A stretch of 64,000 nucleotides of DNA, from assembly GCA_001662655.1 (NCBI GenBank), contig KV460247.1; one strand, written 5' to 3'. The notes under the pieces were generated by a model. It did not search any database and was not told the origin of the DNA. It worked only from the letters and a program-made list of their open reading frames with translations. The translations under genes and the position numbers were made by a program. Below, one piece after another: positions 7,130 through 52,800 of this stretch. How positions within the stretch are numbered: position 1 is the first letter of the stretch; each line of letters starts with the position of its first letter. The stretch is from Pseudogymnoascus verrucosus (taxonomy: Eukaryota).

Positions 7130-7446
7130 GATGGATGATATGTGTGGGAACGAAGAGGATCAACACAAACGTGTCTCTATCGAAATAAGGCTTATGAAGT
7201 TCACCAGAAACCGCGCAACACTTTTCAATGGTAGTAGTGCCTTTGTGCTCTCTCTTTAACTTTAGTAGAAAAGGAGCTTGTTAGATTTACTTAGATTGAA
7301 ATGATTCTGTAGGCTAGTTATTCAGATTTATACGCATTTGTGGACATTTAATCGAGCCGTGGGGACGTTTTACCTTCGGCAATGCAGGTTGGTATGGACC
7401 AAAGTCGAGTCTGTACTCTGGTAGGGTTTACGATCGAGCGGGAACC

Positions 7447-9083: not shown

Positions 9084-9203
9084 AGCAAAATCTGCTGGTG
9101 CCCGCCTTGAGTTTATGGTCCTCGAGTGGAGCCGCCCTACTACCGCATACCGGCCTTAGAGCGTTTGCCGTGATATGCCGGAAAGCTAAGGAATAAAGGG
9201 GTT

Positions 9204-17597: not shown

Positions 17598-18334
17598 AGT
17601 ATCCTATGAAAATACTTTATGATTTGACTTATATTATTATCTACATTCTACTTAGACCTAGCTTTGCAATTTCTCAACCCCTAAGCTTCTAATCATCATT
17701 TTTCGCACATGGCCGTACGCTGCCGAATTGCTCCCCAGCCCCTATTCGGCCTCTCCCCGACATTCCATAATCCAAAATAGGTGCTTGCCTACCATCGGAC
17801 ACACCGCGGGATTCGGCGTCGCGAGCTTCTTGCAGGCGAACGTAGTCGCTAGTGCGTTCTGCCGCACTCGATGACAATCTTGTCGTGGATGACCCTTTAT
17901 CTCGGAAGAGAACCACAACCTTCAGGAAGCTAATGAGGCTCTTAGTAAACGCCGGAGGGCTGAAAAAATACGTGTTCGTTGAGAAGATTCACTAATTATG
18001 GAGGATTCACACAATATTTTGGCCTAGAAAGAGGTTAACGAGCAGGTTGCGTGGATATACGTGAAAATCGAGGTGGTGATCGGGAGAGGCCAGGGAGTGT
18101 ACGGCTCTGTGGCAACAGTGGCAAGACTGGTCATATTGCACGAACGTGCTAGATCGAAGCAGAAAAGTCTAATGTATATAGTTCTGAGTAGTTTTAATTC
18201 ATTTGAAAGGTTGTGGTTTTGTGATTGGCTAGAAAATTGGCCTCACAAAAAAGTGCGCAGCTCGCTGATGAACCACGTTAAACTAGAAGTAAATAAATAT
18301 AACTAGTTATATTTACTTCTAGTAAGCTAAAAAG

Positions 18335-27020: not shown

Positions 27021-27182
27021 AGGATAACCTGGCCAGTGCTGCTAGTCCTTTAAAGTATAGCGGTGCGACGATAGCTGCCAAAGTGTCTTAATTATATATT
27101 CCGCAGAATTCCCCTTCCTCCATGGTTTATTTTGTATCTACATCTCGACATTTCTAGCAATCCCCACTGTCTCACATTCAAA

Positions 27183-28850: not shown

Positions 28851-29497
28851 CATGATAGCTCTGGAAATTCACTGGTGGGGATGAGTGGCAGTGGCGGGGA
28901 TATCTCCTAGATTTAGGCTCAAACTGCAGGTTATCTGTTCTATATAAAGACCTTAAAAAGCAATTAATAAGCCATTGATTGAGGTTTGAAAGACTGTTAG
29001 CATGCAATGTTCAAATAATAGACCGTGCATTTGAGTGTGAAGAGTTTTCATTGATGCTAACCACTAAACCTAATGTACAGGGCCTGATATCATCGTACTG
29101 ATGTCGGGGGAGTAGGGCCGACTCTGCCAATTGCTTGGCAACGAGGCCGGTTTTCAACATGCAATAGCTGCTTTTCTAAACTTGCTCCTGTAATAGAAAA
29201 CCACATGCTGAGAAATATGCCAGCCAATTGTGACAAGAGCCCCACTTTAGTCATTAAATGACCGCTCCACAAATCTTTGGAAGTTTGGCTGGACAAACAA
29301 CGCCACGCGTCCTAGCGGCCGCTAGTAAAGTGCGGGGAAATCCTCCTGTTCTCCCATTTCGTAATTGACTCGACGTTTCTTCAAAGTAGCATTTTAACAA
29401 GAGTAGTCTCATTTGTTTCTGGAGAGGTAGTGTTTACTTGTAAAGAATCTATATTGCATATCTGAGCCTCTTCCAGGTGTTTTAATGGTACAGTAAT

Positions 29498-31140
29498 ATG
29501 GCCACAATGATTGTTCCACGAAAACCCCACTCGAAGACTCGAGGAGGATGCCGGACATGCAAGTATATAACCTGGAGAATCCGTACCATCCCCAATATGA
29601 CACTGACTGGTTTTGTAATAGGTACAGACGCGTCAAATGCGATCAAGACTGGCCTGCCTGCGGGAGGTGCAGTAGAACTGGCCGCCGTTGTGACGGCTAC
29701 GAAATGCCGAATAATGAGAGGCTCACACCTCGCTATATGTCTCTAGAGCATTTCCGAGAGACAATCTGCTCTCCACTCACCTCGTCGTTGGTATCCCACC
29801 CGTTCAGTACGAGACGCCCACAAGAACTACGCTCGATCCAGTTCTTCCAGACTCGCACGATGCCTGCGATGTCCGGCTGCTTTGGAGGGTATGCCTGGTA
29901 CTCTCTGGCCATCAACTTTGGCACGGCATGTCCTGCCATTCTCCATGCTATAATTGCACTCGGCGCATATCACGAAATCTCAGAGGCCGTCAAAAGTACG
30001 GAGGCGTGGAGCTTAGATCGTAGCGCGAATCCGTCTGACCTTTCCTCTTTAGCCTCCGTACAGTACATGAAGGCCATTCCTCTCCTCCGCGACAGTCTTT
30101 CCTCGAACGAATCCTCGCCTGCTGGAATTGAGATAGCTTGTGTATTGTTCGCTTGCATAGAATCGCTCAGAGGCAATCGACAATCGGCATCCGTACACGT
30201 TACGGGCGGGTTAAGCGTATTAAAATCACGACAAAAGAGCCAGCTTATGTCCTCCGAGGAGGCGATTATGAAACCAGTGTTTGCTCGGATGAGCCTCATG
30301 CAATCTCTTTACGGCCGCCCCAGAGGCATTCGGTTTCCAGAGCTTCTAGATCCATACGACGAGGCACCCTCTCTGCGTGAGGGTAGATTTGTGAATCTCA
30401 AGGATGCTTACACTGCGAGCACAGGGATGTTGAATGGAAACGTGCGTTATGTTGAGATGACTAAACATGGCGGCTTTCCAGACCAGGCTACAACGGATAT
30501 AGCATATGCGGCCCATCTTTCGCAGGTTAAGGGTTGGTCCAAAGCTTTTGAGGCTTATGTCAGTGAGCCTGCTACAAGCGAGGAAGAGGTTCTTGGACGA
30601 GTACTATTGCGCTCACACCACTCGCTTGCGCGCTCTTTTCTGGCAGCTTGCAGAACTCGACAAGAGAAATCCTTTGACCTTGACATTTCCCATTTCGAGT
30701 TGATCGTCAGATCTCTGGAACCCTTCATTTTGCCCCTAGCAAATTCTGGACAACCGTTCTCGACATCCTTCTCGCTAGATATGGGGTTAGTCCCCACATT
30801 GTTCTACACTGCGGTCAAGTGCCGACATCCGAAAGTGAGACGGAGGGCAATAGCGTTACTACGTCTTGCACCGAGGCGAGAGGGGCTTTGGGACGCGATT
30901 GAAGCGGCCAAAGTTGCAGAGCTAGTGGTTAAGTTTGAAGAGACTTACCTAGATGAATCTGGAAGCAAGCGAGATTCGTCAACAGAGCCGCATTTGATAC
31001 CAGAATGGGCGCGGATCCACGACGTCGACATCCTGGATATTGATTCTCTGGACCCTTCGCGGCAACTGGTCATTCTAAGATGGAAACCCGATGGGATCGA
31101 TGGGAAAGTTCAGGATATGCGCAGCTACATTCGTTGGTAA
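29498..31140 (+). CDS. Zn(II)2Cys6 transcription factor (Upc2/DUF3468-like C-terminus), one intron in the cluster
   Basis: KTRGGCRTCK / YRRVKCDQDWPACGRCSRTGRRCDGY across intron ~29563-29621; FSLDMGLVPTLFYTAVKCRHPKVRRRAIALL..RREGLWD. Confidence 0.92.
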
Positions 31141-33949: not shown

Positions 33950-34580
33950 TATAAGGACATAGGGAACCGTATCACGAGAAGTTGCATATAGGAGTGTAAG
34001 TTAGATAGAAGTCGGTGCAATCCTATAGGTCTACTACGAAGGATACAAAAAAGATGAAGGCGTAACCCTATATGGCTGTTCCCTTAAAATACCTAAAACC
34101 GCTCTAATTTAGCTAGCTCCCTATTTGCCTAAGGCTTCCTTACGTTATGTGCCTAAGGCTGTTAGTTGCAACTAACCCATAACAGCCCTAAGTCTTAATG
34201 GCGCTACGTAACGGCCGTAACTACCCTAAGTAAGGAGGCATCCTTATAGCTGTCCCTAGTAGGCGTAATCTTTTTTATATAATGTAAGGACATAGGGCAC
34301 TATATTATAAGAAGTTATATATAGGAGTGTAGGTTAGATAGAAGTTGGTGTAATCCTATAGGTCTACTATAAAGGATATAAAAAGATAAAGGTGTAACCC
34401 TCTATAGCTATTCCCTTAAAATACCTAAAACTGCTCTAACTTAGCTAGCTCTCTATTTGCCTAAGGCTTCCTTACATTATGTACCTAAGGCTATTAGTTG
34501 CAACTAACCTATAACAGCCCTAAGTCTTAATGGCACTACGTAATAGCTATAACTACCTTAAGTAAGGAGGCATCCTTACA
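33950..34580 (-). mobile_element. RIP-mutated two-LTR mini-element (TRIM-like): LTRs 33950-34248 and 34283-34580 with a 34-bp spacer
   Basis: Two ~298-bp direct repeats bounded by TGTAAGG...CCTTACA (left copy TATAAGG...CCTTATA). Differences are mostly C->T/G->A. The spacer carries a sequence complementary to an internal LTR segment. Confidence 0.82.
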
Positions 34581-35370
34581 CTTAGGGGTAATGTAGGCTA
34601 GGGGACTAGGGCTAGGGGACTAGTACCTTAGGCACCTTATGTTAGTTATACCTATACACTTATATGCCCTATGCCCTATAGCTAGTAGGAGGATAGCATA
34701 TAGTACTAACCTACTACTAAGTTAGTAAGGGTCTAACTATAAAGTAGTAGATAAGAATAGCTAAGCCCCCTATAAGGAGGGCTTAGAGATTAGTCTATTA
34801 AATACTATTTCTATTACTAGAGCCTATAGCTATAGCACGCTTCTACTAAACCCTTATAAAAATTATTAAAAATTAAAATTATAACATATTTTACTTATAA
34901 GTAACTATATAAGTAAGTAAGTAACATACTAAAACACTATTACTACTACTACTATACTACTATATAATAACCCTTATTTAATTATAATTAATTCCTAGCA
35001 TGCTATATATTCTATAGTACTACTATTAGCTGTCTATTTATATAAATGTTTAGTAAAAGCTCTTTAGCTATAAATCTAGTCTATTAAAATGTTTTAAATT
35101 CTAACCTATAAGAATTCCTTTATATAGAGTTAGACACTAGCTTCTCTACTTACTATAGTAACTAAAGAAACATTATATTATGTATTTTTAACTTCAACTT
35201 ACCTAATCTATAGAAGGGATTAATCGCTAGTTAAAGCGATTTTGCTCCCTAGCTATAATTTGCCTACCTACTACTATAGATATCATAAAGTAACAGAGGT
35301 AGGTCTGTACTATAAATGTAAGGTAGAAGCGTAAGTATATTCTTTAAACCCTCTAGATTTCTATAGAGTC
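34581..35370. other. Heavily RIP-mutated AT-rich relic (origin unresolved)
   Basis: Strong TpA enrichment, CpA/TpG depletion and no ORFs; an intron-like GTAAGT..TAG remains on the minus strand near 35150-35200. Confidence 0.6.
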
Positions 35371-35455
35371 GGCCTAACTGTCTCTGCACTTACCGTGAAC
35401 TCTAGGAGTGCCCGAGATAATGTCAGCTGACCCACTTCGGCTTAAGACTCTTATC

Positions 35456-35467
35456 GATAAGCGCGGC
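35456..35467 (+). promoter_or_regulatory. Orphan copy of cluster motif GATAAGCGCGGC
   Basis: Exact match, back-to-back with a second GATAAG on the minus strand (CTCTTATCGATAAGCGCGGC). Confidence 0.55.
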
Positions 35468-35948
35468 AAAGGAGATTGCCCCAACTGCTTAATCTAGAGC
35501 ACTACTGTAAGATTCGGCGATGGAGACCTATCTAACCCACTAGACACTTATGGGGAAGAAACTATGGCAGGTACGTACTGTCTGTAAACACGTAGCGCAT
35601 GATCTTGACGGGCATCGAAACGGAGTAGCTGTTTAAGAGAGCTTGCTATAGTCATATCTAACAGATGAAAGAAAGATACGTTTCGGTTGGACCAGAACAG
35701 CCCTCTTAGACAGACAAATGCAAGACAGCCAAACTCCACCTTCTATCAACCGCACCCCAGAGTGTTTCTTATATGAGCTTGTGTTTACGCCTTGTGCATA
35801 TCTTGTTAGGCGGCCACATATAAGTTCCCAAATTAGACATATTCTACAAGCTAGATACTTTATGCATATATGCGTGGTAGCTCTCGTCTCCTAACTTAAC
35901 TTCTAAATCTTATGCCCATCTAGTCTCTGATATCATCAGACTAGTACC

Positions 35949-36350
35949 CTACTGAACATACGCCTCTACCTCGATCTCAACCTCCATCCCTGGAATACCC
36001 AACTTTGTCACCTCAATGCAAGTCCAGACAGGCTGATGGTTGGGCATCCACTTCCTGAATTGCTCAACCATGATATCAAAACTTTTGTCGAGATCGGTGT
36101 GATAGCTTCTCACAGAGTATACATTGGCCCATCCATCACCGCCTGCCTCTCGGACATTCATCTCGACGTTCTGAAAGGCAAGTTGGATCTGCCCGATGAT
36201 ATCGCCCTTCACAATCTCTCCAGATTCATTCCAGCCGCCTTGGCCGGAACACTTGATGGTAGGACCGATGCGAACCGATTGTGAATATGAGTAGAGTTTA
36301 TTGTTAGTCTCGCCGACGCCAGCATAATTCGTGAACTTGATAGGAGACAT
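35949..36350 (-). CDS. Rid/YjgF/YER057c/UK114-family protein (Arg-less subgroup)
   Basis: YSQSVRIG..CSGQGG..QIQLAFQNVE..HQPVWTCIEVTKLGIPGMEVEIEVEA; intronless, 133 aa. Confidence 0.92.
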   Translation of the reverse strand: MSPIKFTNYAGVGETNNKLYSYSQSVRIGPTIKCSGQGGWNESGEIVKGDIIGQIQLAFQNVEMNVREAGGDGWANVYSVRSYHTDLDKSFDIMVEQFRKWMPNHQPVWTCIEVTKLGIPGMEVEIEVEAYVQ

Positions 36351-36601
36351 TGTTCCAGAGGATCTTGATAAACGCTGAGTTATAGGGTTTGTGTCAGCCT
36401 CTGATCAGAACTTCCATTCATGTTGTAGCCCAAGGATTGTGCTGTAACACTTACCGGAGTAATTTTGCAATCAGGGAAGATGAAGAGGAAGTTGTAATAC
36501 AAGTAGCTGGAGAAGGTGAAATCGCGGGGTTATATAACTGGTCTGATGGGAGAAACATTATATTGCTCTGCATCCGTGTGTCATGAACTCATGATCTATT
36601 A

Positions 36602-36693
36602 CCGCGCTTATCTCGGTCGTGCAGTCGGAACGAGTGGGGCTACTTGCGGGGTACAAAGGAACCCTTGATATTGCTCATTGTGATAAGCGCGGC
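36602..36693. promoter_or_regulatory. Divergent pair of GATAAGCGCGG motifs in the Rid/ALDH bidirectional promoter
   Basis: CCGCGCTTATC at 36602-36612 (minus) and GATAAGCGCGGC at 36682-36693 (plus); GCGGGG sites nearby. Confidence 0.75.
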
Positions 36694-37028
36694 TGGGCTA
36701 GGTACGGTGATAAACTAAAGCAGGGGAATGTTGTGATACACCTCCTCGACGATATGACATGCTCCTAGAGCATGAAACTACTACTAGATCTGATCCTTCA
36801 TCATCCAAGGCGAGGGGAGGTCTAACCCCTCTCGACTCGTATATTCCCCGCATGCCCGAGTTTCGGGTAGTCTCTACAATACCGGTATCATTGCTCAGCT
36901 AGCTGTAGGTATCCACTTCTGCTATAATGTATAAGTAACCCACATTACAACTTATATCAGAGTGACTGTCTTCTAAACTATCTTCTGAATAGTCTACTGA
37001 TTTCAAAACGCGTATTTTCACTACCATC

Positions 37029-38827
37029 ATGTCATCGACGCTGTTCCAGAATCTGTTGCTCCCCAATGGAGTTGCCTATGAACAACCCTTAGGTTTGTTC
37101 ATTGATAATGTGTTTGTCTTGCCAGCGGAGCCCAGTTTGATACCTGTGGAAAATCCGGCGTAGGTCCACTCGAGATCTTCCATATACCCAAACTCCTAAT
37201 ATTGCTCTAGGACGGGGAAAGATATAATCAGTGTTCATGCCGCCTCTGGGATTGATGTCAACAAAGCTGTCGCTGCAGCTCGTCAGGCGTTCCGTGGAGA
37301 GTGGAGGTCTCTGAGCGCTACTGACCGAGGGTCTTTGCTTTTCAAACTGGCCAATCTTATCCATCGTGACCAGAAATTAATAGCGGCCATTGACTCCATG
37401 GATAATGGGAAGGTAGGTAAAAACACCTCACAGCCCATTCATGATGACGTGGCTCATACTGAATTAGACCTACAATGAAGCCTTGACAATCGACCTTGAT
37501 GAGGCGTACAATGTCTTCAAGTATTATGCTGGTTGGGCAGACAAGATATACGGGCGTACTATTGAGATAGCGCCGTCTAAGTTGGCATATACGTTGCAAG
37601 AGCCTCTCGGTGTCTGCGGTCAGATCATCCCGTGGTATGTTATAATCTTGCCTGGTTTTCTTGTTTACACCTATCTTTCTTTGACACTGACGGAAATTTT
37701 CCCAGGAATTATCCATTCATGATGCTCGCCTGGAAGGTTGCACCAGCACTTGCCTGTGGCAACACTGTGGTCTTGAAGTCTGCAGAGCAGACTCCATTGT
37801 CAGCACTCTATTTCGGAAAATTGGTTCAAGAAGCTGGGTTTCCCAAAGGAGTAGTCAATATAATCTCTGGCTTGGGAAGCATAGCTGGCAGTGCATTGGC
37901 TATGCACATGGATGTTGATAAGATTGCTTTCACGGGAAGCACAGCTACTGGCCGGCTCATCATGAAGGCAGCTACTTCGAATCTGAAAAACATTACACTG
38001 GAATGCGGCGGGAAAAGTCCAAGCATCGTTTTCGAAGACGCCAAGCTGGAGCAAGCAGTCAAATGGTCGCACGCGGGAATCATGGGCAATCAAGGGCAGG
38101 TGAGTAGTCCAAACGCAATTGCAAGTAAAGCTTCTGCTAACAAGCACTATCTTGCTAGGTCTGCACGTCCACATCGCGCATCTATGTGCAAGAATCGATT
38201 TATGACAAGTTCGTTGAGCTTTTCGTAAAACTGACGCAAGAATCAGCAAAGCTTGGAGATCCTTTTGCAGGAGAGACTATTCAAGGCCCTCAGGTATCCG
38301 CTGCTCAGCTCGATAAAATTCTTCAATACATTGAGGAAGGCAAGCGTGAAGGGGCCCATCTTGCTACTGGAGGTGTTCGGCACTCCTCGGAAGGCTATTT
38401 CATTGAGCCAACAGTTTTTACTAATGTAAGTCTAAGAAAAATCTGTAGTATGGAGGCGGACCAGAATACCCGAGACTAATTGTCCATACAGACTCATGAG
38501 GAAATGAAGATCGTCAAGGAAGAGATCTTCGGGCCCGTTGTAACCATCAGCAAATTCAGTGACGCAGCGGACGCGCTCAAGAAGGCTAATGATACCTCTT
38601 ACGGTTTGGCTGCCGCAATCTTCACATCGGATATTGAGAACGGCCTTGCTATCGCTTCAAAGGTTGAAGCTGGCATGGTGTGGATCAACTCTTCCAACGA
38701 CTCGCATTTTGGTATTCCTTTCGGTGGCTATAAGTCTTCTGGAATCGGTCGCGAGTTGGGACCTTACGCTCTTGATGCGTATACACAGACGAAAGCAGTC
38801 CATGTCAATCTAGGAAACACTTTGTAG
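37029..38827 (+). CDS. Aldehyde dehydrogenase (ALDH1/2-like), multi-exon
   Basis: [46 protein letters not shown] (Glu); GQV/C (Cys); [22 protein letters not shown]. Confidence 0.96.
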
Positions 38828-38979
38828 TGGTAACATCCGTAGAATTCTGTATTTTCATTGCTTCCGTCGCCTCAAACAATTGCTGAGCAACTACGTCACA
38901 TAAAACAAAGGTGAAATTTGGTACTGCCTCACACAAGTAATGGCACGTCTATCATTATTGATCTCGCTTAACCTCATTT

Positions 38980-39440
38980 ATGGCTCGCCGCGATCACTGG
39001 CTCACAAAGCCTCAAGGTACCCGCGCAATAGCTGTGATACTCTCCCACAAAAGACAAATGCTAGGTTTCCAGCCTCAGGGGCACGCCAACTTTGCACTCG
39101 TACGAGCAGCGAATGATATGTCATGATGGTTTCAATTGACATTGATGCAGATTCCTCCTCCTCCTTCGTGGACTAATGAGAAAAAGCTGAGACTAGAGGA
39201 AGGACACTAAGTAGGTCGCTAGCGTAACCAAAGAACATAACCCAGCTCTTACAGTCTACAGGACCATCACCACATAGCGAAGAGAAGTCTTCGATTGTCA
39301 ATTCACTCCACTCATGTTCTACTGTGTACTGCTTAATATAGCGATATAGAGGTACAACTCCACGATGAAGCCTCATACTTCTACATCAAGCTTGACATGA
39401 CGCTGATGCAGCCACGATTGTACAAGGGTCCAAGATAGGA
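38980..39440 (-). pseudogene. Inverted, internally deleted pseudogene paralogous to the TF at 45871-47470
   Basis: EWSELTIEDFSSLCGDGPVDCKSWVMFFGYASDLLSVLPLVSAFSH* vs EWNELIIEDCSLLYGDGTTDCKSWGMFFGYANDLFGILPAVSAFAHQ; homology jumps from TF ~47095 to ~47355. Confidence 0.88.
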
Positions 39441-39667
39441 GCGAAAGCTTTGTGCTTTTCAAGATTTCGGTCATATCTTCTCCATATAGCGCATTTAGAC
39501 TGTGACACTGATAGTCCCAAGAAGTTTTACTTACTCTTAGCATGAGGGGATCAATCCACAGATCTCAAATTCACATGTAGCCGAGAAGACTTCGATGAAC
39601 GGAGAGCATGCATGTTTCAATCGTTTCGAGGAGGACGAATTCGCAGAATTATTTGTGTATACAATAG

Positions 39668-41477
39668 CTACTCGACGCCCAAACACGCTTGGATGAGATC
39701 AACTGCCCTAATGACTTTCTCACAGTTCCACTTCTTTCCGACTAGTTGCAGATTGATGGGAGCACCCATGTACTCACTTGGCTCGTAATTAGCCCAATTG
39801 TAGGCATCCATGTCGTTCCTCGGAGTATATATTTCATCCTTTGGGTGCGACTCGGGAGAGCACTTCAAACCGGTTGGAAATGAGTATGCTGGATAGTCCA
39901 AACAGTTGAACACGCAAGTATACCCCCAGTAACGAGCGGTATCATGTCGAGAAGCAGCACAAGGCCCGACGGGACATAGCAGAAAATCTATGTCTGGATG
40001 TTGATTCCAGTCTTGGAGATATTCCGCTACACACAGAAAATTAGTTCGGCATAAGCGGCAAGCGGCAGTTTGAGGAAGTTCTTACTGCGATATTCCTCCC
40101 GCTCCACATTCAGAGCCCAACTCTCCGAGATAGTCCTTAATTTGGTGTGGGGACCAATAATCGACTGGGCTGCCAGTGGCAGGATTGGTTCTCCAGAGGC
40201 TTTCATGGCTTCAAGGTTATCTGCACCTCCATCCTGGAAGTATAGCTTTCTAATGACATTGTAGCCTCTAGAATGTTGATATGGTTTCCATTCTCGAAGT
40301 TCGAACAATGGGTTTTCCCGCAACTTCTTCACAATAGCTTTCAGCGCTGCTGTGATTGGTGGGTGTGGCCTGACAAATCCATCATCCTCAAAGAAACCTA
40401 TTGTGATTTTCTTTGGGGTAGGAGCGCCTCTCCAAGGCAAAGGAACCATATCCGGTTGGTTACGCCACGGTTGAGTGTCAAGGACGTTCCGCATGAAATA
40501 TTCCGTGTCACGCGTAGTCTTGCAGATGACGCCAACAACCTCCGGGAAAGCCTCACAGCCCTTCATAGGGAAGTTTGAACCAGCCAAAGGAATCCGACAG
40601 GAGGTTGCTTTCATTCCATGGAGTCCAACGTTGGCAGCCGGCGCACGGATACTACCGCCACCATCAGCAGCAAGCCCAATTGGTGACCCATGAAACGCGA
40701 CGAGGGCTGCTTCTCCACCACTCGAGCCTCCAGGGCTGAGGTTGCGGCTGTGTGGGTTGAGTGTTCGGCCAAACACTAGAAGGTCAGTTAGCCAGACCTA
40801 CGGGAGGATGTATACATCACACCTACGGTTTGATACGGTCTCAAGCTGCATCAAGGTCTGCGGATTGTTGGTTTTGCAGTAGAATACTGCTCCGGCGTCT
40901 CTCAGGAGTTTGACAATCGGAGCATCCTTTTCGGCGATCGTCCCCACCCACGCAACATATCCTGAAGACGTATCTTTGCCTTTGATATCAAAATGATCCT
41001 TGATCGAGAATGGCAATCCGTGCCAAGGGCCGACAACTTTGCCAGTATGAGCATATATTTCGTCCAGCTCTTTCGCTTGCCGAAGGCCATCATCGAAGAA
41101 GATGTGCGTCATGCAATTGAGCTGTATCTAGAGTTAGGATTTTTCCCTTGTGTAGATATAGCTGCGGGAAGCCGAGAACCATTGGTACGTACCACCTGCT
41201 GTGCAATAGCTGCACGTTTACAAAAAGCCAATGTCAAGTCGTAGCTTTTGAGCTTCCCTTCCGAAATCAGTCGTAGCAGCTCGGTGGCATCTTTCTCTGT
41301 CCATGCCAACTCCTCCGCCGTCATGATCCCGCTTTCATACGGCACACGCATGACATTCCTCACTTCAGGACCAGGGGGGTTCTGGAGGCGCCATTCAGAT
41401 GGTATTGCTGCATCTCTTTTGTTCTGTTCCTCTTGAGCAATGTCTTGCCATGGTCGTCGCTCTTGAGTTTGAGCCAT
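39668..41477 (-). CDS. Amidase-signature enzyme (AmdS/acetamidase-like), multi-exon
   Basis: IPSEWRL; AFCKRAAIAQQ; GPWHGLPFSIKD (Lys); SPGGSSGGE; ADGGGSIRAPAA (Ser-cisSer-Lys triad); FNCLDYPA; ATG at 41477. Confidence 0.94.
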
Positions 41478-41720
41478 ATTGAGAGTTGCTGTCTGCAGGA
41501 GCTCGTTGTAGTTCAAAGAAAATAGCGAAAAGGCTCAGATATAACACACACTTGTGATCGTTTACTTTAATGACACATAATTATGTCGGAACCAGAGTAC
41601 TATGTCCGTAGTCCCTCTTTTAGCTTCTCGCACTTCTAGAGTCATGAGGCTGTGTTCTCTCCTATCAGAATTGGACTATATAATGTTTGACCCAGTACCT
41701 AAGAGTCTAGGAGTTTGTGA

Positions 41721-42225
41721 GATAAGCGCGGCTGACTCGCCCCCGCATTAAAACGTTGAAGTATTGATAAGTGGAGCGAGGGAGATCGCCTGGGGTGTGA
41801 GAGGACTGCGACTGACCTTACAAGGAGTCAATGATAAGAGCGGCTAGGTCAGATTTCATTAGCGTTCAAAGCGGCCTCCGAGACCCACATCAACAAAGCC
41901 GTCGGAAAAGGTCGAAAGGCGCTTCAGTGAAGTCTAAAGAACGGAAGCCTCTGAGCGTTACTGAGTGGGATATTAGCTTCTCAAGTTGAGGACCCTGTAG
42001 TGTAGGATTGGTCCACCCGGACCAACAATATATCCGGGGTTACGGGGGAATGGAGAACATTCGAAACGCGGGTGGCAAAACTGCCTCCCAAAACTGCCAC
42101 CCGTCTTCGAACGTTCTCCATTCCCCCGAATACCAACCTTTGGTTGGTATTAAGTAAGGCCTACCCTTACTAGCTTAATTAGCGTAGAGCGGAACCGTAT
42201 GTACTGTAGGTTAGCCGCTCTTATC
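41721..42225. promoter_or_regulatory. Three GATAAG[C/A]GCGGCT motifs in the amidase/MFS bidirectional promoter
   Basis: Copies at 41721-41733 (+), 41833-41845 (+) and 42213-42225 (-); CCCCGCAT at ~41741 and ~42236. Confidence 0.78.
42043..42128. repeat. Long imperfect inverted repeat (~34-bp arms) flanked by smaller hairpins
   Basis: CGGGGGAATGGAGAACATTCGAAACGCGGGTGGCA ... TGCCACCCGTCTTCGAACGTTCTCCATTCCCCCG. Confidence 0.85.
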
Positions 42226-42600
42226 GCGCACATTTCCCCGCATTCCCATGTCTTTGGTTTGATTAGCAAGTCGAGGACGCAAGAAACGAGGTTTTCTGCT
42301 CCTATCTCACGTACTCTCAGATGTTAGATACTCAAGGACCAGTAGATTTCCTTTCTATCTTTGTTCTCAAAGTTCGGTCACAGATGACAGGGAGTATCTA
42401 TACTAGGTCGTCAACCATGCGCTTGCCCGAAGCAGAGCCATGGGCGAGCCAACTGCCGAATCTCGAAATCTTAGGCTCATCTCCCCATATCAGCCAGCAG
42501 TGTACCCATATCTCCTACCAGAGTGTAATTTGATATAAAACAGCGAATAGGTCCTGAATAGAAGTGGCAAGAGTAGATGCTGAAGCTCTTGTTCATCAAG

Positions 42601-44655
42601 ATGGCCGCCAACCAAGATTTAGAGACAACCACACAGGTTGCCGACGCATCAACACTCGATGACTTGCGCCTGTCTCCCGGAACAGTATTCCTTTCACATG
42701 GTGAGTTGCCTTCGGTACGAAGTTCTAGACAGGACGGCGCTGATTGCATCGTTAGCTAAAGACGCCCCGATCATTCTGCAGCCGCGGCCATCAGAAGATC
42801 CCAATGATCCTCTGGTACAGACTCCAATCTCCACACCCCACATACTATAGCACGTGCTAATCAACAGAAGTAGAACTGGTCAAAAATTCGGAAGACGATC
42901 AATTTCTCTCTTGTTTTATTCTATACGCTCCTCGGATTTGCAGTGTAGGTCTCAAAGCGGAGTGGGCATTAGCAATCGTTAAAGCTGATTCATCGGCGAT
43001 AGCATCACTGTCCAAACGCCTCTATGGGCTCCCATCAATGAGGACCTTGGGTTTTCGTCCGTCGCTCTGACCAATGGGTACGCTACTAACGTAGCTGCAT
43101 TGGCTGTTGGTTGTGTCTTTTTTGTCCCGTTGGCACTCAAATACGGCCGGCGACCCGTATATCTAACCACCACTCTCCTTATGTTATTGTCATGCATATG
43201 GCAGGCGAAGATGACTACTTTAGCCGATCTGTACCTCTCTGTTTTCCTATCTGGCCTTGCTAGCGCCGTCAACGAGGCTTTGGTTCAAATTACAGTATGG
43301 GATCCTTCTGAATCGTCGTCGTAGTATCTCTAACAGGTGGATCAGATTGCAGACTTGTATTTTGTGCATCAGCGAGGTACGATGAACGGGATCTACATTC
43401 TTTGCGTAGCAATAGGGGTATGTATCACGATTCCATGCTGGATCATGAATGCTAACGATCGGCAAGAACTATCTTGCGCCAGTGGCATCTGGCTACGTGG
43501 CAAACTCCCAAGGTTGGACGTGGTCATTCTGGTGGCCCTGCATATTTTTTGGAGTTGCGAACGTGTTGATGCTTTTCTTCTACGAAGAAACGAAGTACAT
43601 AGGACCTATAACTGGAATCTGCCAGGCCAACGGACCAAACCCAAGTGTACACACTGAACCAAACCTGTACGAGAAGGCAGCCAACGACAAAGAGACTTCA
43701 GTGGGTGACCCTATACCCACCATATCTCACTTAGAAGATCCCTCCGTCTACATTAATAGGAACATACCTCTGAAATCCTACAGAGAGCGACTGCCGTGGT
43801 TCGTGAACAGCCCGGGGTCTTTTGCAAGCTTTATCCGCCACATATATCAGCCTTTTCAAGTCATGGGATTGTTCCCTATTGTAGCATTTGCATGTCTTCA
43901 ATACGGTACTGCAATTGCCTGGCTAGCCATTCTTGCAACAACTGAAGCTAGTCTCTTTGCGTTACCGCCTTACAACTTTAATACTATTGCGATTGGAAAT
44001 CTCAATATTGCACCTTTCATTGGTTTCCTCTTTGGATCTGTGTTTGGTGGTCCAATCAATGATTGGTCGATCGTACGTCTAGCAAGACGGAACAGAGGCA
44101 TTTATGAGCCAGAGATGCGCCTCCGACTATACATCATCCCAGTTCTAGCAATGGCAGCCGGCCTGCTTATGTATGGCCTCACCCTTGCTAAGGTATGCCA
44201 GCAATCAATATGTGAGCATTTTCTGGGACTGACCGTTTCTAGGGAGTGCATTGGATCCTGCCTGCCACAGGCTCAGGGATAATGGCTTTTGGTATATCCG
44301 CCATCATGGACTTGAACCTCAGCTATCTAATAGATGCACACATAGAAGTTAGTTATTGCGAATGTTCTACATGCATAGACCTTCCTTCCTAACTAATTGA
44401 ATCCAGATCCTCGGAGATGCCTTGGTTGCAGTAACTTTTGTTCGCAACGCCATAGCCATGGTCATCGTCTTCGTACTCCCTCCTTGGATGAATGGTATGG
44501 GCACTTATAATATGTTCGTCATCATGGGAGTGTTGTCGCTCACATTTGGTTTGACCTTCATACCCATGATGCTGTATGGCAAGCGGGTGCGCATTGCTTG
44601 CTCTAGTAGATATGCCAGATACGCCCAGAAGCAATTCAGTCCCCGCGGAGTCTAA
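42601..44655 (+). CDS. MFS transporter, HOL1-like (multi-exon)
   Basis: PGTVFL; ILQPRPSEDPNDPL/NW; PLALKYGRRPVY; IADLYFVHQRGTMNG; FYEETKY; RRNRGIYEPEMRL; stop at 44655. Confidence 0.92.
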
Positions 44656-45739
44656 TGCGACCAAGCATCAAGATGTTGACATGTACCTCGGGTTCTAGTT
44701 TTAGCAATATAATTTACTGTTCTGTTACACTTTTGTGTAAATAATGCGATACTCAAGTACAAAAGCTCGCCTGGTACTTAAATGTCCCATGGCTAACCCA
44801 GTCCTATAGGATACCGAATGCCACTGAACCTTAGGTGACTGGTTTTGGATTATTTTGACTGTTAGTAGCGGCGCTTCGAGCTTACATCAAACTTACGAGT
44901 TAACCTTTTCGAAGTTTGCATCAGCAGTTATTTCCAAAAAAATCTCTCGCGGGGTTATCCTGAGGTATGAAGGAACGGCTTCGACTCAAGTGGACCATAG
45001 TTGACCTACCTGACCAGTTGACGGCGTAGGGATAGTGTTCAGTGGCTCCCGGTGTATCGCTTGATTTCTCAACGGCACATGACGTGCCAACGAAGGCGGT
45101 TGTGTTGGAATTCGGGTGTGTTGAGCAGCGGAACAGCATTGGACGAGGCAAATCACAGGTGACGGGCAGGTTTGGGCTCAAAACCCAGTGCGTCGGGGTT
45201 CTGAGGCAACCCCGGCTCACACCAAGCACCAATTGGGGAGCCCGACGGTAACACTGAGAAAAGCCGTCATTTTAGGGCCAAAATATCACCGTATCCCACG
45301 GTGCCCGTCCTCTTTTCCCCAACAGCCTGCAGGTGCTTAAGTGCTCACGTGCTCAAAATATATATGGGAGAAGCGCAGACACGTCGCTGATATGCTCCTT
45401 CAAGCCTTTTTGATAAAAGTCGATGTAGTCTCGATTCGGAGATTCTAGCATGGGTGCACGACGACAAGCCCCATTAAAAAGTATTGACTAAACGAAATGC
45501 CACTCCCAGACTCATGGTGGCTCTCAACGTGAGGGGAAATTTGGTCGTGGCGCGACCACTCGAATCAGCGCATGGGCCTCGGGTCTTAGTGTTGGGCCTG
45601 GCCGCGCCACACTACCAACGTCCACCCTTCATTTGCTCGACCAGAGATATTTCCTATCACCCGAAAAATACTTGACTAATTAAATAATGGGTGGGCATCA
45701 AAGGACTACTCTTCCGCCCCACGCTAATTGAGTCGAGTA

Positions 45740-45870
45740 GATAAGAGCGGCTAACCTGCCCTCAACAATCAAGGATCGGACATGCATTAGATATCGAAAG
45801 TGCCATTTCCTCTCTCTGTTTCTTTCTTTGCTTTACATTATTATCGGGCCCCAGCTCAGCTGCGCTTATC
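45740..45870. promoter_or_regulatory. Two cluster-motif copies upstream of the cluster TF (candidate autoregulation)
   Basis: GATAAGAGCGGCTAACCT at 45740-45757 (18/18 identical to the reverse complement of 42208-42225); variant GATAAGCGCAGCT on the minus strand at 45858-45870, abutting the ATG. Confidence 0.72.
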
Positions 45871-47470
45871 ATGAACCCCTTAACGTTGTTGAAAACATCG
45901 ACCTTCTCGAGAGCAAAGTCCGGATGCTCGGTATGCAGGCTCCGCAAGAAAAAGTGTGATGAACGCAAACCAAGATGTGGAGGTTGCGAACGGAACTACC
46001 TACTCTGTACATGGCCATCTGTCATGTCAGCTAAGGGCGATCTCCGGCGGAGTAGCAAACCCCCTGGAACCCATTTGAAAGTGGAGCTGCTCCCCGCAGC
46101 GAAGGCCTTAGAAGTTCTCGACCACTGCAGCCACAATCTTCAACGGAAGACGGACACTGGAGACAACGCCGCACAGCAATTATTTAGGAGTTCCAAGAGC
46201 ACTCCTGAGCGAGCTTCATCATCAACAAGCCCAAATCTTCTAAAACCAAGCGAGGTGTTCCAAGTCACAATGACTCGACCGGCCTCCCGAACCCTACTTC
46301 AGCACTATCAAAGTCGAACCGCGGATTTGCTTTGCGCCTCTCAAAGTCGTGAAAACCCCTTCATTTCACTCTTAATTCCATTTGCAGCAACGCATGAGCT
46401 CCTCCTTCAATGTATCCTAGCTCTTAGTGGTGTTCACTTCATCAATAATTCCAATGGCGCTCCCTCCTCTGATATTATGGCTGCCACTTGGACACACTAT
46501 GGACTAGCTGTCAGAGGACTCAAACATGGGATTACGAGATTTGCATATGGAGAGCAAGAAATTTTGCCACTGCTTATGGCCACTTTAGTGCTTTGTTTTG
46601 TAGAGGTGAGTCCTGCCCTACGACCAAAAGTAGAAGTTAGCTGATGAGTGGATGCAGTCGACTAGAGGAAACGTAATCAGCATCGCCCAACACCTCAAAG
46701 CTGCTCGAACTTTTCTACTCTCTTGGCTTCAACAGCGTCAACCCAAGATTGAAGTAGAACTACGAGGCTTCGTCATTGAATTCTATCTATACATCGCTAT
46801 ATTGAGCAATACTCAGCTAGGACCTGAGTGGAATGAATTAATAATCGAAGACTGTTCTTTGCTATATGGTGATGGTACTACAGACTGTAAGAGCTGGGGA
46901 ATGTTCTTTGGTTACGCCAACGACCTATTTGGTATTCTTCCGGCAGTCTCAGCTTTTGCTCACCAGAGCAGTAGAGAAGAGGAGGACTCTACGAACAAAT
47001 CCTTTGAATTCATCGTGAACTATTACTCGTTGCTTGCACAGGTGAATAGTTGGCATCCCCCTGAAGCTGGAGATCTGGCATTTGTCGCTTGTGGCAGGAT
47101 ATATCAACAGGCTCTCCTTCTCCTTTTGCATACATCGTTCTATAGAGACGAACTTGGGTCTATGACCTTGAACAACTTACTTGAGCAGGGTGTGCGGGAA
47201 TTCCTGGCGCTCTTAGAGAGTTTGCCTGTGGAATCACCAATTGCAACTACACTCTGCTGGCCACTTTCGATTGCTGGCTCCTGCGCTCGCTCCGAATTAC
47301 ATCGCAATAGTATACGAAAACATCTTAAGATGATGTATAAGAGATTCAACATGGAGAATATCACGGCTGTTCTGCGGGTGCTCGAGGCTTTGTGGGACGG
47401 TGATCACTACAAGCCACTCTACATCACAACAGTAATGCGACAGCAGAATGAGCACTTCATTATTCAGTAG
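45871..47470 (+). CDS. Zn(II)2Cys6 transcription factor with DUF3468/Fungal_trans_2-like domain (2 exons)
   Basis: RAKSGCSVCRLRKKKCDERKPRCGGCERNYLLCTW; ENPFISLLIP; CILALSGVH; TLCWPLSIAGSC; intron ~46606-46657. Confidence 0.93.
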
Positions 47471-47634
47471 TACGCCAGTTTAGGCAATGGACAAACGGTA
47501 AGAATATTTACAAGTGTGGAATGACAGGACTATATTAACACTTAATGCATGCTTTATTGTCTAGTCTGATATTTGAAGTATTGTGTATTTATTGTCTAGA
47601 GCTTTCTATCAAGTACTATAGGATGGAAACCCCC

Positions 47635-47690: not shown

Positions 47691-48311
47691 TCAGATCTTT
47701 CTAGCCTCACTGGAACCACGCACCACACGTCGGACCTTCCCTCCCGTAGCATCAGGGCAAGTTCCCTGCTTGGAGAACTCGGCAGCCCCACAGAAGTTAA
47801 GGCCACTAGAGTAGTTCATGTACCCATAATCGGTGTGCTCATAAGGTCTCATTCTCGAAGTCCCAGCAATGAAGTTGCCGCAGTTGTAGGAGATATCGAC
47901 GGCGTTGTTGCTGACGAGGTTCGATGGAACGGTGATGGATGACACGGCTGAAAAGTTGCAAATGAATGAAACCGCGGAGTTCTGGATAGCGTACCGCGCA
48001 GCGCCGGCACCGAGCTGCGGCGAAGAGGAGGCGTAGTCGGCGATGCGCTGGTTGGCGATGTTGGTGTCCCCGGCGTTCATGGGGAATGCGCAGCCACACC
48101 AGGTTTGTCTGGAGTTGCCGACGGCACCCCGCTTAGTGTGGTCCAGTGTAACATAGGTGGATTCAAAGTCGGTTTTAACGAGTCTGTGAACTTCTTCGCC
48201 AACTTCGTTGTAGGAGACTTCGTAAAGTCCGTTGGCAAGATCGCCTGGGAGGGTGAAGGCAGAGCCAAGGGCAGCGAGGCCGCTGAGGACGAGGAGAGTC
48301 TTTGCGTGCAT
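47691..48311 (-). CDS. Small secreted cysteine-containing protein (effector/toxin-like), 206 aa
   Basis: Signal peptide MHAKTLLVLSGLAALGSA; acidic pro-region ending in KR; mature part with 6 Cys (WCGC, FIC, YNC, NFC, GTC); intronless. Confidence 0.85.
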   Translation of the reverse strand: MHAKTLLVLSGLAALGSAFTLPGDLANGLYEVSYNEVGEEVHRLVKTDFESTYVTLDHTKRGAVGNSRQTWCGCAFPMNAGDTNIANQRIADYASSSPQLGAGAARYAIQNSAVSFICNFSAVSSITVPSNLVSNNAVDISYNCGNFIAGTSRMRPYEHTDYGYMNYSSGLNFCGAAEFSKQGTCPDATGGKVRRVVRGSSEARKI

Positions 48312-49027
48312 TTCGGGAAGGGATGGTTCTTGGTTGAAGAAGCAAACGAGTAAGTTTAGAGGTAGAGTCTATGAGAACAAAGGCCGAAGGCGCTAAACTG
48401 AGTTTTGAGTGCTTGGAAGACGAGAGAGATCTGTGAAGCTACAGATCAAAAGTCATAAAACAGAGGAGCAGCAAATGATTTATATAGTTGAGAAGACTGC
48501 TCTATTTATCACCGACCCTTCCTTACAAATGATACCAATTGTGAAGCATAACGAGAAATGAGGGTTAGTAGGTAGCCATTGGTTACTATCAATCTGAGGG
48601 TATTCCTGACTTCAGCGCCATGAAATAGATCAACAGAAAATACTGCTTCACTCGGAGCTGTAGGATTGAAGGAATGCAGTAACTGAAGGAACGACAGCTG
48701 AATACGAGGATAGAAATCCTGCAGGATTTATATGTGTAAGCCTGGATTTAGCCATTAATAAGGACAGGAACACTAACTTTTCGGCATAAGTGGCACCTAT
48801 GCGTAAATTCTCTCCTACCATCCACGAAAACTATACGCTGCATTCCTCTAAAGTGTCCGCTTTTAACTATATATCTTCCTCTGGGCAGGGGGGGGGTCCA
48901 CGTAAGCCGCTATGACAGAAAGTTTAGCCCCCGGCTTAACCTACCGTCGCTTCACCCCGAAGTCAGCCTTAAGGAGGCGGGGAGCTGTACCTTGATCCCA
49001 CCCTGAGCCTATCGGCACGATTGAGAA

Positions 49028-49829: not shown

Positions 49830-52800
49830 TCAAGTCATACTAGGGTCTAGGGACTTATTTCGCTCCTGCTTGTCGCGGTAGCTCGACCACCCAAGTGTAT
49901 CCATATCCCATGCGCCTAGCCTATAAATCGCTCTGTATCCATCGGGAGCCCGAAGATTTACGTCTGCTCCACCAGCAATCAACCTTGCTATAACATCAGT
50001 GTGACCATGGCACGCAGCTTCATGAAGTGCTGCTCCGGGACCGTAAGTCGAACCAGGAGCATCCACGTCTGCCCCAGCTTTAAGCAACATATCCACCGCT
50101 TCAAGATTGCCCTTCTCAGCAGCTATTTCAAGTGCCGTGGGGCCTTGATCCCCATGAGGAGTCGCGTTCGGGTTGGCCTTGGAAGCAAGTAGCAACGCTA
50201 CAATCTTAAGGTGACCACGTCGTACAGCTGTTTGAAGCGCTGTTTCGCTATGCTTAGCAAGAGCAGCTTCCACGTTTGCCCCGGCAATAAGTAGGGTTTT
50301 GACAATCTCGAGGTGGCCATGTTTTGCTGCTAATTGGAGCGCCGAAAGACCCTGGCCGTAAAAAGTGGGGATGTTGCGTACGTTTGCCCCAGCAGTAAGT
50401 AGGATTTTGACAACCTCGAGGTGGCCATGTTTTGCAGCTACTTGAAGCGCCGAATGTCCTCTGGGAAAATCAGAGAAGTCATCCACGTCTGACCCAGCAG
50501 TGATCAACCTAGCCGCTACCTCGGGGTGACCACCAGCGGCCGAAAGTTGTAACGCTGTATAGCCATTATACTGTAATATTTTCGAGTAAGCATTTGCATT
50601 CAGTCGTCCATACTTAAGTAGCCAATAGTTCATAGCTGTCAAGTCACTCTGCGGGTGATCATTTCGTTCATTAAATGCAATGATTCCGTCCACGATATCG
50701 AGCCGTCCCACTAATGATGCTAGTAGTAACACCAATTCTAATGATCTTTGTAGGTCATATTTGCCAAAAAACTTTACCTCCGCTAAGAACGGCTTACATT
50801 TAGCCTTAGCATTGAGTAGGGCTTGAGCGATATCGAACTGATTTCCCATTGCTGCTACTGCCAAGGGGTTTGTTTTCCCTCCACTTAGGGCGTCGGGTTT
50901 GGCGCCTCTCTCTAACAATATTTTAACAACCGCCTCATGACCACAGCTCACAGCGGCCGTCAACGCATTGTCATATGTTCCTATCTGGGCGTTGATATTG
51001 GCGCCACCTTCTACCAGTATCTCAACCACTTCTGCGTGGCCAGCACAGGCAGCCGATGCTAGCGCGCCGCCATATTTTCCCTTCTGGGTGTTGACATTGG
51101 CGCCTCTCTTTAACAATATCTTGACCATGTTCGCATGGCCCATCGCGGCTGCCGCTTCTAAGGCGCCGGCATATTTACCACCTTTGGCGTTAACCTCTGC
51201 GCCCGCCTGCAATAATATGTAGACCATTTTCTCATCCCCACTTTCAGCAGCGGCTACTAGTGCACAGCCATATATTCCACCATGAGCATTGACTTCAGCG
51301 CCATTCTTTAACAGTCCCAAGGCCATAGCCTCGTGGCCGTTATGAGCTGCGGCTACTAGCGCATATCCGTACTCCCCAGATAGACCATTAACATCGGTGC
51401 CCTCAGCTAGTAGCAATCGGACTGCTTCGAGGTTGCCATCCGCGGCTGCGCTTTGTAGTGATTGAGCGTTGAATTTTGCTCCGTCCTCAAGTAGAAGACT
51501 AACAGTCTTCTCCACATTTCCACGAACCTTTCCCAACTTCGTTGAATTCTGCTTATCAAAGCACTTTATCGTCGCTCCTTTCGATATGAGTAGACGCAAA
51601 ACGTCGGCTTTATAATGACGGGATGCTATTTGCAATGGTGTTAAAGCGTTGTTGTCCTTCGCATTGATCACAGAGCTTGAAAACTTAATCAATATCCCAG
51701 CCGCTTCTGTCGCACCTCCACGAGCCGCGTAATGTATCGCTTGTTGTCCCAGGTTGTCCTTCTCAGATACCTTCACCTTTTTCTTAAGGAGACTTCTCAC
51801 AGCGGTCGGAATATTCGCCATAGATGCAATGTGCAGTAGCGTAGAGCTTTCTGAAGGAAGCACACCCAAATAATCTCTTGGGCAGAATATCTTGCCTGCT
51901 GAGCACCACAGGCTAAACAAACCTTGTTCTACGATATCCCGTTTGGGAAATCTATAGGTATGCTTGTAGTCAAATTGATCAAGAAGTGTTTCCTGGTAGT
52001 GGCCATTCTGCTCAGCCTTTGAGGCATGCCAAAAGTATGCGGCGATTGCGTACTGTAGTAGCGGGAGGGTTTCTAAAGCAGGTAACTGAATCCAGGTGCG
52101 TTTGCTCGAAGATTTTTTGATGATTGTAGTTGTTGAATGTTGATGGACGTCTTTTGTCCAAAGATAGTTTACGCATGATCTAGCAAGTATGTCGTGGCAT
52201 GAACCTTCGAATTTTTTCTTCTCCGTATCCGAGGGGGTTTTTAAACCTGTGAGAATTTCGAATCCCTCCTCTAGTAAAAAGTCTCGAACTGTTTGATGAT
52301 TGACTTGAACTACTGTGCCTGAATCGTGTTCTCTGACTTCTATCAGGCCACCAGATAAGGCTGTAATCCGCGTTTCCATTCTATACTCCACGTATTCGCT
52401 GGAGTCTTTGAGATGATATAGCTGAAGTGGAGGTAGGCTGTCAACAACGGCCATGGCATGCCGTATCTCCTCTAGTGATAGCGGTCTCGCTGCAAAGCAT
52501 ACCCATCGAAATAGCTTCAGTGCTCCCGTCTTTTGCTTTTGGCTGATTAGAGCCTGGAGAATATACCGATACATATCATTGAGATCTTTAGGCAGATCAT
52601 AAAGTATATTTTGGATCGAACCTAAAGGTTCTGCCTCCCGATCCGCTTTAAATATGATTGGCAACACGAGGCACACCCATTGGAAGACTCCATTTGCTTT
52701 TGCAGCAATGTCGTCTTCTAATTTAAGGCTCATCGCCTTAGACTTGATCGGCCCATCGTCTTGTAAATTCTGTTCAAATTCCCTTTGGATGAACAATCGT

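Follow-up and report, generated by a model that had tools for sequence, protein, structure and literature searches.

In the fungus Pseudogymnoascus verrucosus, a stretch of 64,000 nucleotides (nt) on contig KV460247.1 (assembly GCA_001662655.1), analyzed at its full length and referred to below as the 64-kb window, contains five neighboring genes that encode a Rid-family protein, an aldehyde dehydrogenase (ALDH), an amidase-signature enzyme, a transporter of the major facilitator superfamily (MFS), and a Zn2Cys6 transcription factor (TF). The promoter regions of these genes share the motif GATAAGMGCGG (M, A or C), in which a GATA-like word is joined to a CGG-containing one, and the question raised by the locus is which protein or proteins read it. 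The answer favored here, tentatively and from sequence alone, is that the element is composite: the Zn2Cys6 factor of the cluster would bind the GCGG side, an AreA-type GATA factor would bind the GATAAG side, and the five genes would be co-regulated.

Both strands of the window were scanned for GATAAGMGCGG, and the counts were compared with those in 100 dinucleotide-preserving shuffles. Seven exact matches were found against 0.06 expected, and eight matches were found against 1.75 expected when up to one mismatch was allowed; 0 of 100 shuffles reached seven in the former case, and 0 of 100 reached eight in the latter. A control set of unrelated metagenome loci, in many cases fungal and totaling 571,701 bases, contained a single exact copy. 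The distribution of the motif within the window is bimodal. All matches with zero or one mismatch are located between positions 35456 and 45870, and none is found elsewhere in the 64 kb, so that the restriction to the cluster noted in the initial annotation of this DNA is borne out, along with the presence of at least one copy in every promoter region of the five genes, including that of the TF itself. Matches with two mismatches occur at the background level, with 13 outside the cluster span and 5 inside.

The Rid/ALDH promoter region contains two exact copies, at 36602..36612 on the minus strand (-252 relative to the Rid ATG) and at 36682..36692 on the plus strand (-337 to the ALDH ATG), which form an everted pair 69 bp apart. 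Three exact copies are found between the amidase and MFS genes: two on the plus strand, at 41721..41731 (-244 to the amidase ATG) and 41833..41843 (-356 to the same ATG), and one on the minus strand at 42215..42225 (-376 to the MFS ATG). The TF promoter contains one exact copy at 45740..45750 on the plus strand (-121 to the TF ATG) and the one-mismatch copy, GATAAGCGCAG, at 45860..45870 on the minus strand, which occupies positions -11 to -1 and thus abuts the ATG at 45871. The coordinates given initially were exact for six copies, and the other two, listed as 42213(-) and 45858(-), were each 2 bases too low. The straightforward reading of this placement is that the five genes are co-regulated and that the TF gene is autoregulated, as we infer from the arrangement of the copies. 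The remaining exact copy, GATAAGCGCGG, is located at 35456..35466 on the plus strand, approximately 490 bp 3' of the Rid stop codon. The DNA around it is AT-rich (37% GC), with no open reading frame (ORF) of 40 or more amino acids across the copy, which lies within a perfect 12-nt palindrome, CTTATCGATAAG, made of two head-to-head GATAAG words (35444-35466). This orphan copy may be what is left of a promoter since lost.

The anatomy of the element was read from the seven exact copies and the one-mismatch copy, aligned in one orientation. The 11-nt core GATAAG[C/A]GCGG described initially holds, but conservation runs further, to about 14 nt, GATAAGMGCGGCTR. Judged by the composition of the window, the 11-mer would arise by chance about once per Mb, and the 14-mer would be roughly 30-fold rarer. 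The 5' edge is sharp at G1, and the bases upstream of it are unconserved. Positions 1 to 6 (GATAAG), 8, 9, and 11 are invariant in all eight copies; position 10 is G in seven of the eight and position 12 is C in seven, position 13 is T in six, and position 14 is a purine in every copy. The sole freely variable position, 7 (A or C), is located exactly between GATAAG and GCGG. The copies at 42215(-) and 45740(+) have 18 nt in common, GATAAGAGCGGCTAACCT. Past positions 14 to 18, the flanks of the copies are unrelated to one another, and a self-comparison of the region from 33.6 to 47.6 kb detected no repeated segment across any motif copy. Thus, the copies are independently maintained words rather than duplicated DNA. 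An origin of the motif from a repeat or from a miniature inverted-repeat transposable element was considered and is ruled out by the self-comparison together with the unrelated flanks.

On the GATA side, all eight copies match HGATAR, with A, C, or T preceding GATA and A following it. On the other side, CGG occupies positions 9 to 11 in seven copies, and CAG takes its place in the eighth. A dimer-type site was searched for within 45 nt on either side of the eight copies, and no second CGG or CCG was found to recur at one distance; the best case, at +23/+24, applies to three of the eight copies, with mixed orientation. A Gal4-like CGG-N11-CCG site was rejected, because it fits only one copy of the eight. 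Outside the composite copies, HGATAR shows no enrichment across the three intergenic regions of the cluster (10 matches versus 8.7 expected).

An unbiased k-mer screen across the same three intergenic regions recovered the main motif and one further word, CGGGGTTA. In the whole window, this word occurs just three times, always on the plus strand and once per intergenic region, at 36525 (36525..36532), 42035, and 44950; the copies at 36525 and 44950 have 12 nt in common, TCGCGGGGTTAT. The word, which contains the CreA-like GCGGGG, may be a second regulatory word or may be there by chance. The initial annotation had pointed to matches to the CreA consensus, and this observation stands for the single word GCGGGG, present 6 times in the three intergenic regions against 1.5 expected, but not for the SYGGRG consensus overall, which is not enriched (15 versus 11.1 expected by length). 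The 42035 copy of CGGGGTTA is positioned at the edge of a hairpin-forming inverted repeat of 86 nt (42043-42128) between the amidase and MFS genes. The repeat is unique in the window, and its arms of 23 nt are 96% complementary and enclose a loop of 40 nt. In the assembly of a relative (X8), position 42058 is joined in one contig to position 47513 of the opposite strand, which the palindrome may have caused during assembly.

Under the composite reading, GATAAGMGCGGCTR would be the cis-acting control site of a small and lineage-restricted regulon for catabolism in a Pseudogymnoascus-type fungus. The Gal4-type Zn2Cys6 factor of the cluster would read GCGG(CTR) through its CGG-reading zinc cluster, and the orthologue of AreA/NIT2, the general nitrogen GATA factor, would read the invariant GATAAG one variable base away. 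With both factors side by side, transcription would require nitrogen derepression as well as a pathway signal. Since copies of the element are found in the two bidirectional promoters as well as ahead of the TF gene, the transporter, the amidase, the ALDH, the Rid-like protein, and the regulator would be induced jointly, and the regulator would reinforce its own expression. This reading is favored because a zinc cluster contacts one triplet and no second triplet is placed so that a dimer could use it, because the sole variable base is located at the junction of the two halves, and because the rule on the 5' neighbor in HGATAR is obeyed in eight of eight copies; in addition, the gene content is that of a pathway for a secondary nitrogen source, and AreA is known to cooperate with Zn2Cys6 factors (PMC4246892). 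In particular, the action of AreA with the pathway-specific Zn2Cys6 factors NirA and TamA is described as synergistic, with physical interaction between the partners (PMC4246892). Several observations weigh against the composite reading. AAG is kept in all eight copies, which amounts to more constraint than a generic HGATAR site needs; the 35456 copy is located outside any promoter; and the orientation of the copies relative to the flanking genes is inconsistent. To our knowledge, there is also no precedent for GATA and CGG sites fused at a fixed one-base spacing. Finally, AreA and NIT2 prefer two HGATAR sites within 30 bp (PMC4246892), and a second HGATAR at a distance of up to 30 bp is present for just three of the eight copies, namely those at 35456 (the palindromic partner at 35450), 36682 (at 36708), and 45860 (at 45841).

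Other readings of the same element differ in how many proteins are assumed to read it and in where these are encoded. A stricter version of the composite reading, possible but rather doubtful, is that GATAAG-M-GCGGCTR is an obligate composite site on which an AreA-type factor and the Zn2Cys6 factor would sit shoulder to shoulder in a heteromeric complex, so that a logic of "nitrogen-starved AND inducer-present" would be written into 14 bp; such a single 14-bp word would contrast with the loose, separate sites of the nitrate, purine, and proline systems. In the main rival reading, the Zn2Cys6 factor of the cluster would by itself read the entire element of 11 to 14 nt, as CCG with an AT-rich extension (CCGCKCTTATC on the other strand). 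The likeness to a GATA site would then be coincidental, and the five genes would still be controlled jointly, with the TF acting on its own promoter, but nitrogen status would not be wired into the element. Zn2Cys6 factors encoded within a fungal cluster are usually recognizable by a cluster-specific word found in every promoter, that of the TF gene included; the invariance of positions 5, 6, and 8 (A, G, and G) in all eight copies exceeds HGATAR and fits a continuous read-out by one protein; and stand-alone HGATAR sites, at 10 versus 8.7, are not enriched apart from the composite copies. Among yeast Zn2Cys6 factors, Stb5, Yrr1, and Hap1 recognize one CGG or CCG together with adjoining A/T-rich bases, and AlcR is a monomer on single WGCGG sites. 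However, a Gal4-like zinc cluster contacts a 3-bp triplet, so that 14 conserved bases would need extra contacts beyond those visible in the sequence; there is no second triplet for a dimer; and in the supposedly coincidental half, every one of the eight copies keeps GATAAG without a mismatch, preceded by a base other than G. Reading by the cluster factor alone is regarded as somewhat unlikely.

It is improbable, in our estimation, that the factor or factors bound to the element are products of genes elsewhere in the genome, with the TF of the cluster either using another sequence, such as CGGGGTTA or TGCGGGG, or not regulating these genes. The occurrence of CGGGGTTA once per intergenic region and nowhere else in the window and the excess of GCGGGG in these regions (6 versus 1.5) speak for such an arrangement, as does the fact that CGGGGTTA and TGCGGGG each contain a CGG readable by a Zn2Cys6 factor. 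These second words are, however, far less significant than the main motif, with a chance, by our estimate, of about 1 in 10 that an 8-mer would be distributed in this way once the number of 8-mers tried is allowed for, and the 42035 copy borders the 86-nt hairpin repeat, whereas the main motif offers a canonical CGG 121 bp upstream of the TF ATG. It would be more surprising still, and is considered very improbable, if the copies had no regulatory role and had arisen by chance, as remnants of short mobile or duplicated sequences, or as relics of promoter duplication. A history of duplication in the cluster is shown by a decayed copy of the TF gene, described below, and the 35456 copy is located in noncoding DNA with no gene to serve; against this, 0 of 100 shuffles reach the observed count, no repeat extends across the copies between 33.6 and 47.6 kb, and the copies are exact while the DNA around them differs, with flanks that are unrelated beyond positions 14 to 18.

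The genes served by these promoters were modeled as spliced genes with canonical GT..AG introns of 49 to 71 nt, and the families were assigned with Pfam. All five models are open from ATG to stop, and each of the five families named initially was confirmed. The layout of two divergent pairs plus a TF was upheld by the spliced models as well: Rid and ALDH diverge, as do amidase and MFS; the ALDH and amidase genes are convergent, and the TF gene follows the MFS gene. The amidase-signature gene (39668..41477, minus strand; exons 41193-41477, 40827-41121, 40086-40775, and 39668-40026) encodes an AmdS/FAAH-like protein of 542 amino acids (PF01425, E = 1.4e-43). The model is identical in 542 of 542 residues to a database protein (P0266) listed as a Pseudogymnoascus verrucosus hypothetical protein, which validates the splicing. 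Its translation contains FSIKDHF, GGSSGGE, and GGSIRAPA; the amidase motifs FSIKD, GGSSGG, and GGSIR we take to be the regions of the Lys/cis-Ser/Ser catalytic triad. The closest solved structures are PDB 8wv2 and 6kvr; a literature search on 8wv2, the closest one, returned no paper.

The ALDH gene (37029..38827, plus strand) has six exons (37029-37159, 37211-37412, 37468-37634, 37706-38099, 38159-38425, and 38492-38827) and encodes a class 1/2-like protein of 498 amino acids. PF00171 was detected on two of the exons (E = 1e-55 and 1e-38), the closest PDB structures are of the ALDH1/2 class, and the translation contains LECGGKSP and GQVCTSTSR, presumably the ALDH motifs with the catalytic Cys and Glu. 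Because it is a generic class 1/2 enzyme, it says little on the substrate, and NCBIfam provided no specific equivalog for the amidase, the ALDH, or the Rid protein. The transporter gene (42601..44655, plus strand; eight exons, 557 amino acids) shows MFS_1 on two exons (E = 6e-7 and 7e-8), and its nearest Atlas clusters are generic MFS clusters (score, 0.97); the identity of the transporter is supported to the level of MFS only, which makes the HOL1-like label of the initial annotation a tentative one. The TF gene (45871..47470, plus strand) consists of two exons (45871-46605 and 46658-47470) and encodes 515 amino acids with a zinc cluster (PF00172) and a Fungal_trans_2 domain (PF11951). The zinc cluster has the spacing CX2CX6CX6CX2CX6C (Zn_clus, E = 5.7e-8), and the segment CSVCRLRKKKCDERKPRCGGCERNYLLC aligns to the Gal4 DNA-binding domain (E = 9e-5).

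The Rid-family gene (35949..36350, minus strand) is a single exon that encodes 133 amino acids (PF01042, E = 4e-23). In a HMMER alignment, its HQPVWTC is placed opposite HKPARSC of YabJ and PYPNWTA of Escherichia coli YjgH, so that Trp occupies the position of the RidA-type catalytic Arg, as it does in YjgH, and the protein scores 43.5 bits against the NCBIfam Rid model, below the cut-off of 106. The conserved Arg (Arg105 of E. coli TdcF/RidA) is essential for imine hydrolysis, and Rid4 and the YjgH-like Rid7 possess Trp in its place; Rid7 of Salmonella lacks imine hydrolase activity, and Rid4 to Rid7 are described as having no known function (Niehaus et al., PMC4433059). The protein of the cluster is therefore probably YjgH/Rid7-like and not an imine deaminase, and it is doubtful that it serves an amine pathway by deaminating enamines or imines, because Trp replaces Arg and Rid7 is inactive. 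It resembles the Rid7/YjgH-like subfamily in the Trp at the catalytic Arg and in its alignment to YjgH (VWT here versus NWT), but differs in its host: Rid1 to Rid7 are largely confined to bacteria (PMC4433059), whereas the cluster gene is fungal.

Together, the predicted functions suggest a physiology in which the MFS transporter would take up an amide or N-acylated amine, the AmdS/FAAH-type amidase would hydrolyze it, and the ALDH would oxidize an aldehyde intermediate. Such a sequence of uptake, hydrolysis, and oxidation is the likely one for a substrate of this kind.

Traces of the history of the cluster are retained within it. The space in which the ALDH and amidase genes converge contains a pseudogene relic of the TF gene (38981..39429, minus strand) that is interrupted by in-frame stops and has lost an internal segment. 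It is 77% identical in nucleotide sequence to TF exon 2 (46713-47097 and 47353-47416) and 56 to 61% identical in amino acid sequence, and it is about equidistant from the live TF (56.5%) and from the closest database relative of the latter, P0001 (58.3%). The presence of this relic implies that the cluster passed through a duplication or a fusion; one possibility is that the Rid/ALDH and amidase/MFS modules once each possessed their own copy of the regulator.

Beyond the window, the whole cluster was found in the assembly of a relative, X8, on two contigs (35403-44917 and 44892-47513) with ~97% nucleotide identity. In another relative (X7), it is present in small pieces, and in two more (X13 and X14), only short pieces were found; 429 differences were counted in this comparison. 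Most 31-mers of the cluster are also present in several further runs. Two segments, 34936-35254 and 45088-45325, behave as dispersed repeats in X8, where they are found on several contigs and at 4 to 7 times the depth; in the same assembly, 416 different nucleotides stand in place of 45088-45319 and 113 in place of 35633-35712. The cluster edges and the region upstream of the TF are thus structurally variable among close relatives.

Among more distant sequences, an exhaustive search with TF exon 2 identified 405 relatives at E <= 1e-3, with a single representative above 50% identity, P0001 (74%), and the next at 38%. The best amidase homologues after P0266 are from Pseudogymnoascus sp. (60%), Myotisia (57%), and Capronia (55%), and the best named Rid homologues (65 to 68%) are from Fusarium, Lasiodiplodia, Clonostachys, Ilyonectria, and Aspergillus melleus. 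The taxa that provide the best homologues differ between the two proteins, and this gives no hint of the five genes moving as a set beyond the lineage. Metagenomes were scanned with alignments of the TF and of Rid. The TF scan yielded 164 pattern matches, none of them a relative, and the Rid scan yielded 80 loci, the closest of which are 68% (L001) and 65% (L002) identical; these two loci, 1.4 to 1.7 kb long, end 102 to 171 bp upstream of the Rid gene, short of the place where the motif would be expected. None of the 80 Rid loci has an amidase, MFS, or TF neighbor. An ALDH gene was found 5 to 7 kb from the Rid homologue in four of the 80 (L007, L008, L019, and L020), which make up two pairs with identical match coordinates and possess Rid homologues that are 46 to 50% identical. 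An orthologous cluster was absent from both scans, and, judged from these comparisons, the cluster looks lineage-restricted beyond close relatives.

The remainder of the window contains genes of related types. At the left end (633-9155), an amino-acid permease (633-1511, minus strand), a copper amine oxidase (3804-5463, plus strand), and a Zn2Cys6/Fungal_trans factor (8259-9155, minus strand) form a possible second nitrogen-source module, in which no copy of GATAAGMGCGG was found. Closer to the cluster, a carboxylesterase gene (27075-28850, plus strand) adjoins a gene for a Zn2Cys6/Fungal_trans_2 factor (29497-31140, plus strand), and further left there are an NmrA-like gene (13840-14835, minus strand) and an MFS gene (18319-19269, minus strand); the motif is absent from all four. 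The gene-free stretch to the left of the cluster contains a tandem direct duplication of ~295 nt (33952-34246 and 34285-34578; 89% identical). Directly to the right of the TF gene, a 225-amino-acid ORF (47691-48368, minus strand) begins with a signal-peptide-like MHAKTLLVLSGLAALGSA and has no Pfam family; no motif was found in its upstream region, and it is probably outside the cluster. Finally, a 1,222-amino-acid ORF on the minus strand (49830-54376) shows, by eye, a P-loop, GKAGAGKST, and many ankyrin-like repeats, and adjoins a patatin-like phospholipase fragment identified with Pfam (53678-54376); the arrangement is the layout of a fungal NLR-like protein.

Several characterized fungal systems share parts of this organization. 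In the alc regulon of Aspergillus nidulans, the Zn2Cys6 factor AlcR is autoregulated and binds single (A/T)GCGG cores, CreA sites are located near the activator sites, and an aldehyde dehydrogenase is included. The likeness to the present cluster lies in the MGCGG core, in the GCGGGG words close by, and in the autoregulation, which here would follow from motif placement. Conversely, the AlcR zinc cluster is atypical and that of the TF here is Gal4-like, AlcR sites are without the GATAAG extension, and the alc regulon serves carbon rather than nitrogen metabolism. In the A. nidulans nitrate cluster, niiA-niaD, the GATA and NirA sites are separate elements, whereas in the present cluster all eight copies join a GATA-like part to a CGG part with the same spacing. 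The gene content differs as well, since amidase, ALDH, Rid-like, and MFS genes take the place of nitrate assimilation enzymes. What the two have in common is divergent catabolic genes and, on the nitrate side, a Zn2Cys6 activator (NirA) that acts with AreA (PMC4246892), as would be the case here under the composite reading.

The hxn nicotinate regulon of A. nidulans is likewise a case of clustered nitrogen-source catabolism with its own factor, HxnR, under stringent AreA control (PMC8478523). The term amidase occurs 7 times and MFS 3 times in the text of that paper (PMC8478523). The hxn set is, however, larger, with 11 hxn genes, and neither a Rid/ALDH/amidase/MFS quintet nor such a motif is seen in the available part of the paper (PMC8478523). 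In the FDB1 xenobiotic cluster of Fusarium verticillioides, MFS, amidase, and Zn2Cys6 factor genes are co-induced (PMC4726666). This cluster also includes NmrA-like, dienelactone hydrolase, metallo-beta-lactamase, amino-acid transporter, and salicylate hydroxylase genes; it lacks Rid and ALDH genes, the terms "aldehyde dehydrogenase" and "L-PSP" do not occur in the text of the paper, and the passages found describe no shared promoter motif (PMC4726666). The FDB1 and FDB2 benzoxazolinone clusters were therefore rejected as the same system, because the gene set differs (PMC4726666). Literature searches with the motif strings returned only unrelated primer-type matches, and none was found to describe the gene set, in agreement with the initial view that this gene set and motif are not a described pathway, and text searches with the locus tag and its numeric neighbors found no mention in the literature. 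By analogy, the logic of the cluster resembles that of the Aspergillus catabolic clusters in which AreA acts together with a specific factor, such as those for nitrate and nicotinate.

If the TF of the cluster alone binds the element, the outcome would be one more cluster-specific Zn2Cys6 site, useful but ordinary. If instead the composite reading is true, the 14-mer would open a way to the remaining members of the regulon, through a scan of the genome, to the inducer, and to the substrate of the amidase, and it would offer an in vitro system for cooperative binding of GATA and Zn2Cys6 factors at adjacent half-sites, refining the picture of how nitrogen control and pathway induction are integrated. 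It would also supply a physiological context for a Rid protein of the Trp type (Rid7/Rid4-like). Should the element work as proposed here, it would represent a compact cis-code for one pathway in little-studied, cold-adapted fungi of soils and caves.

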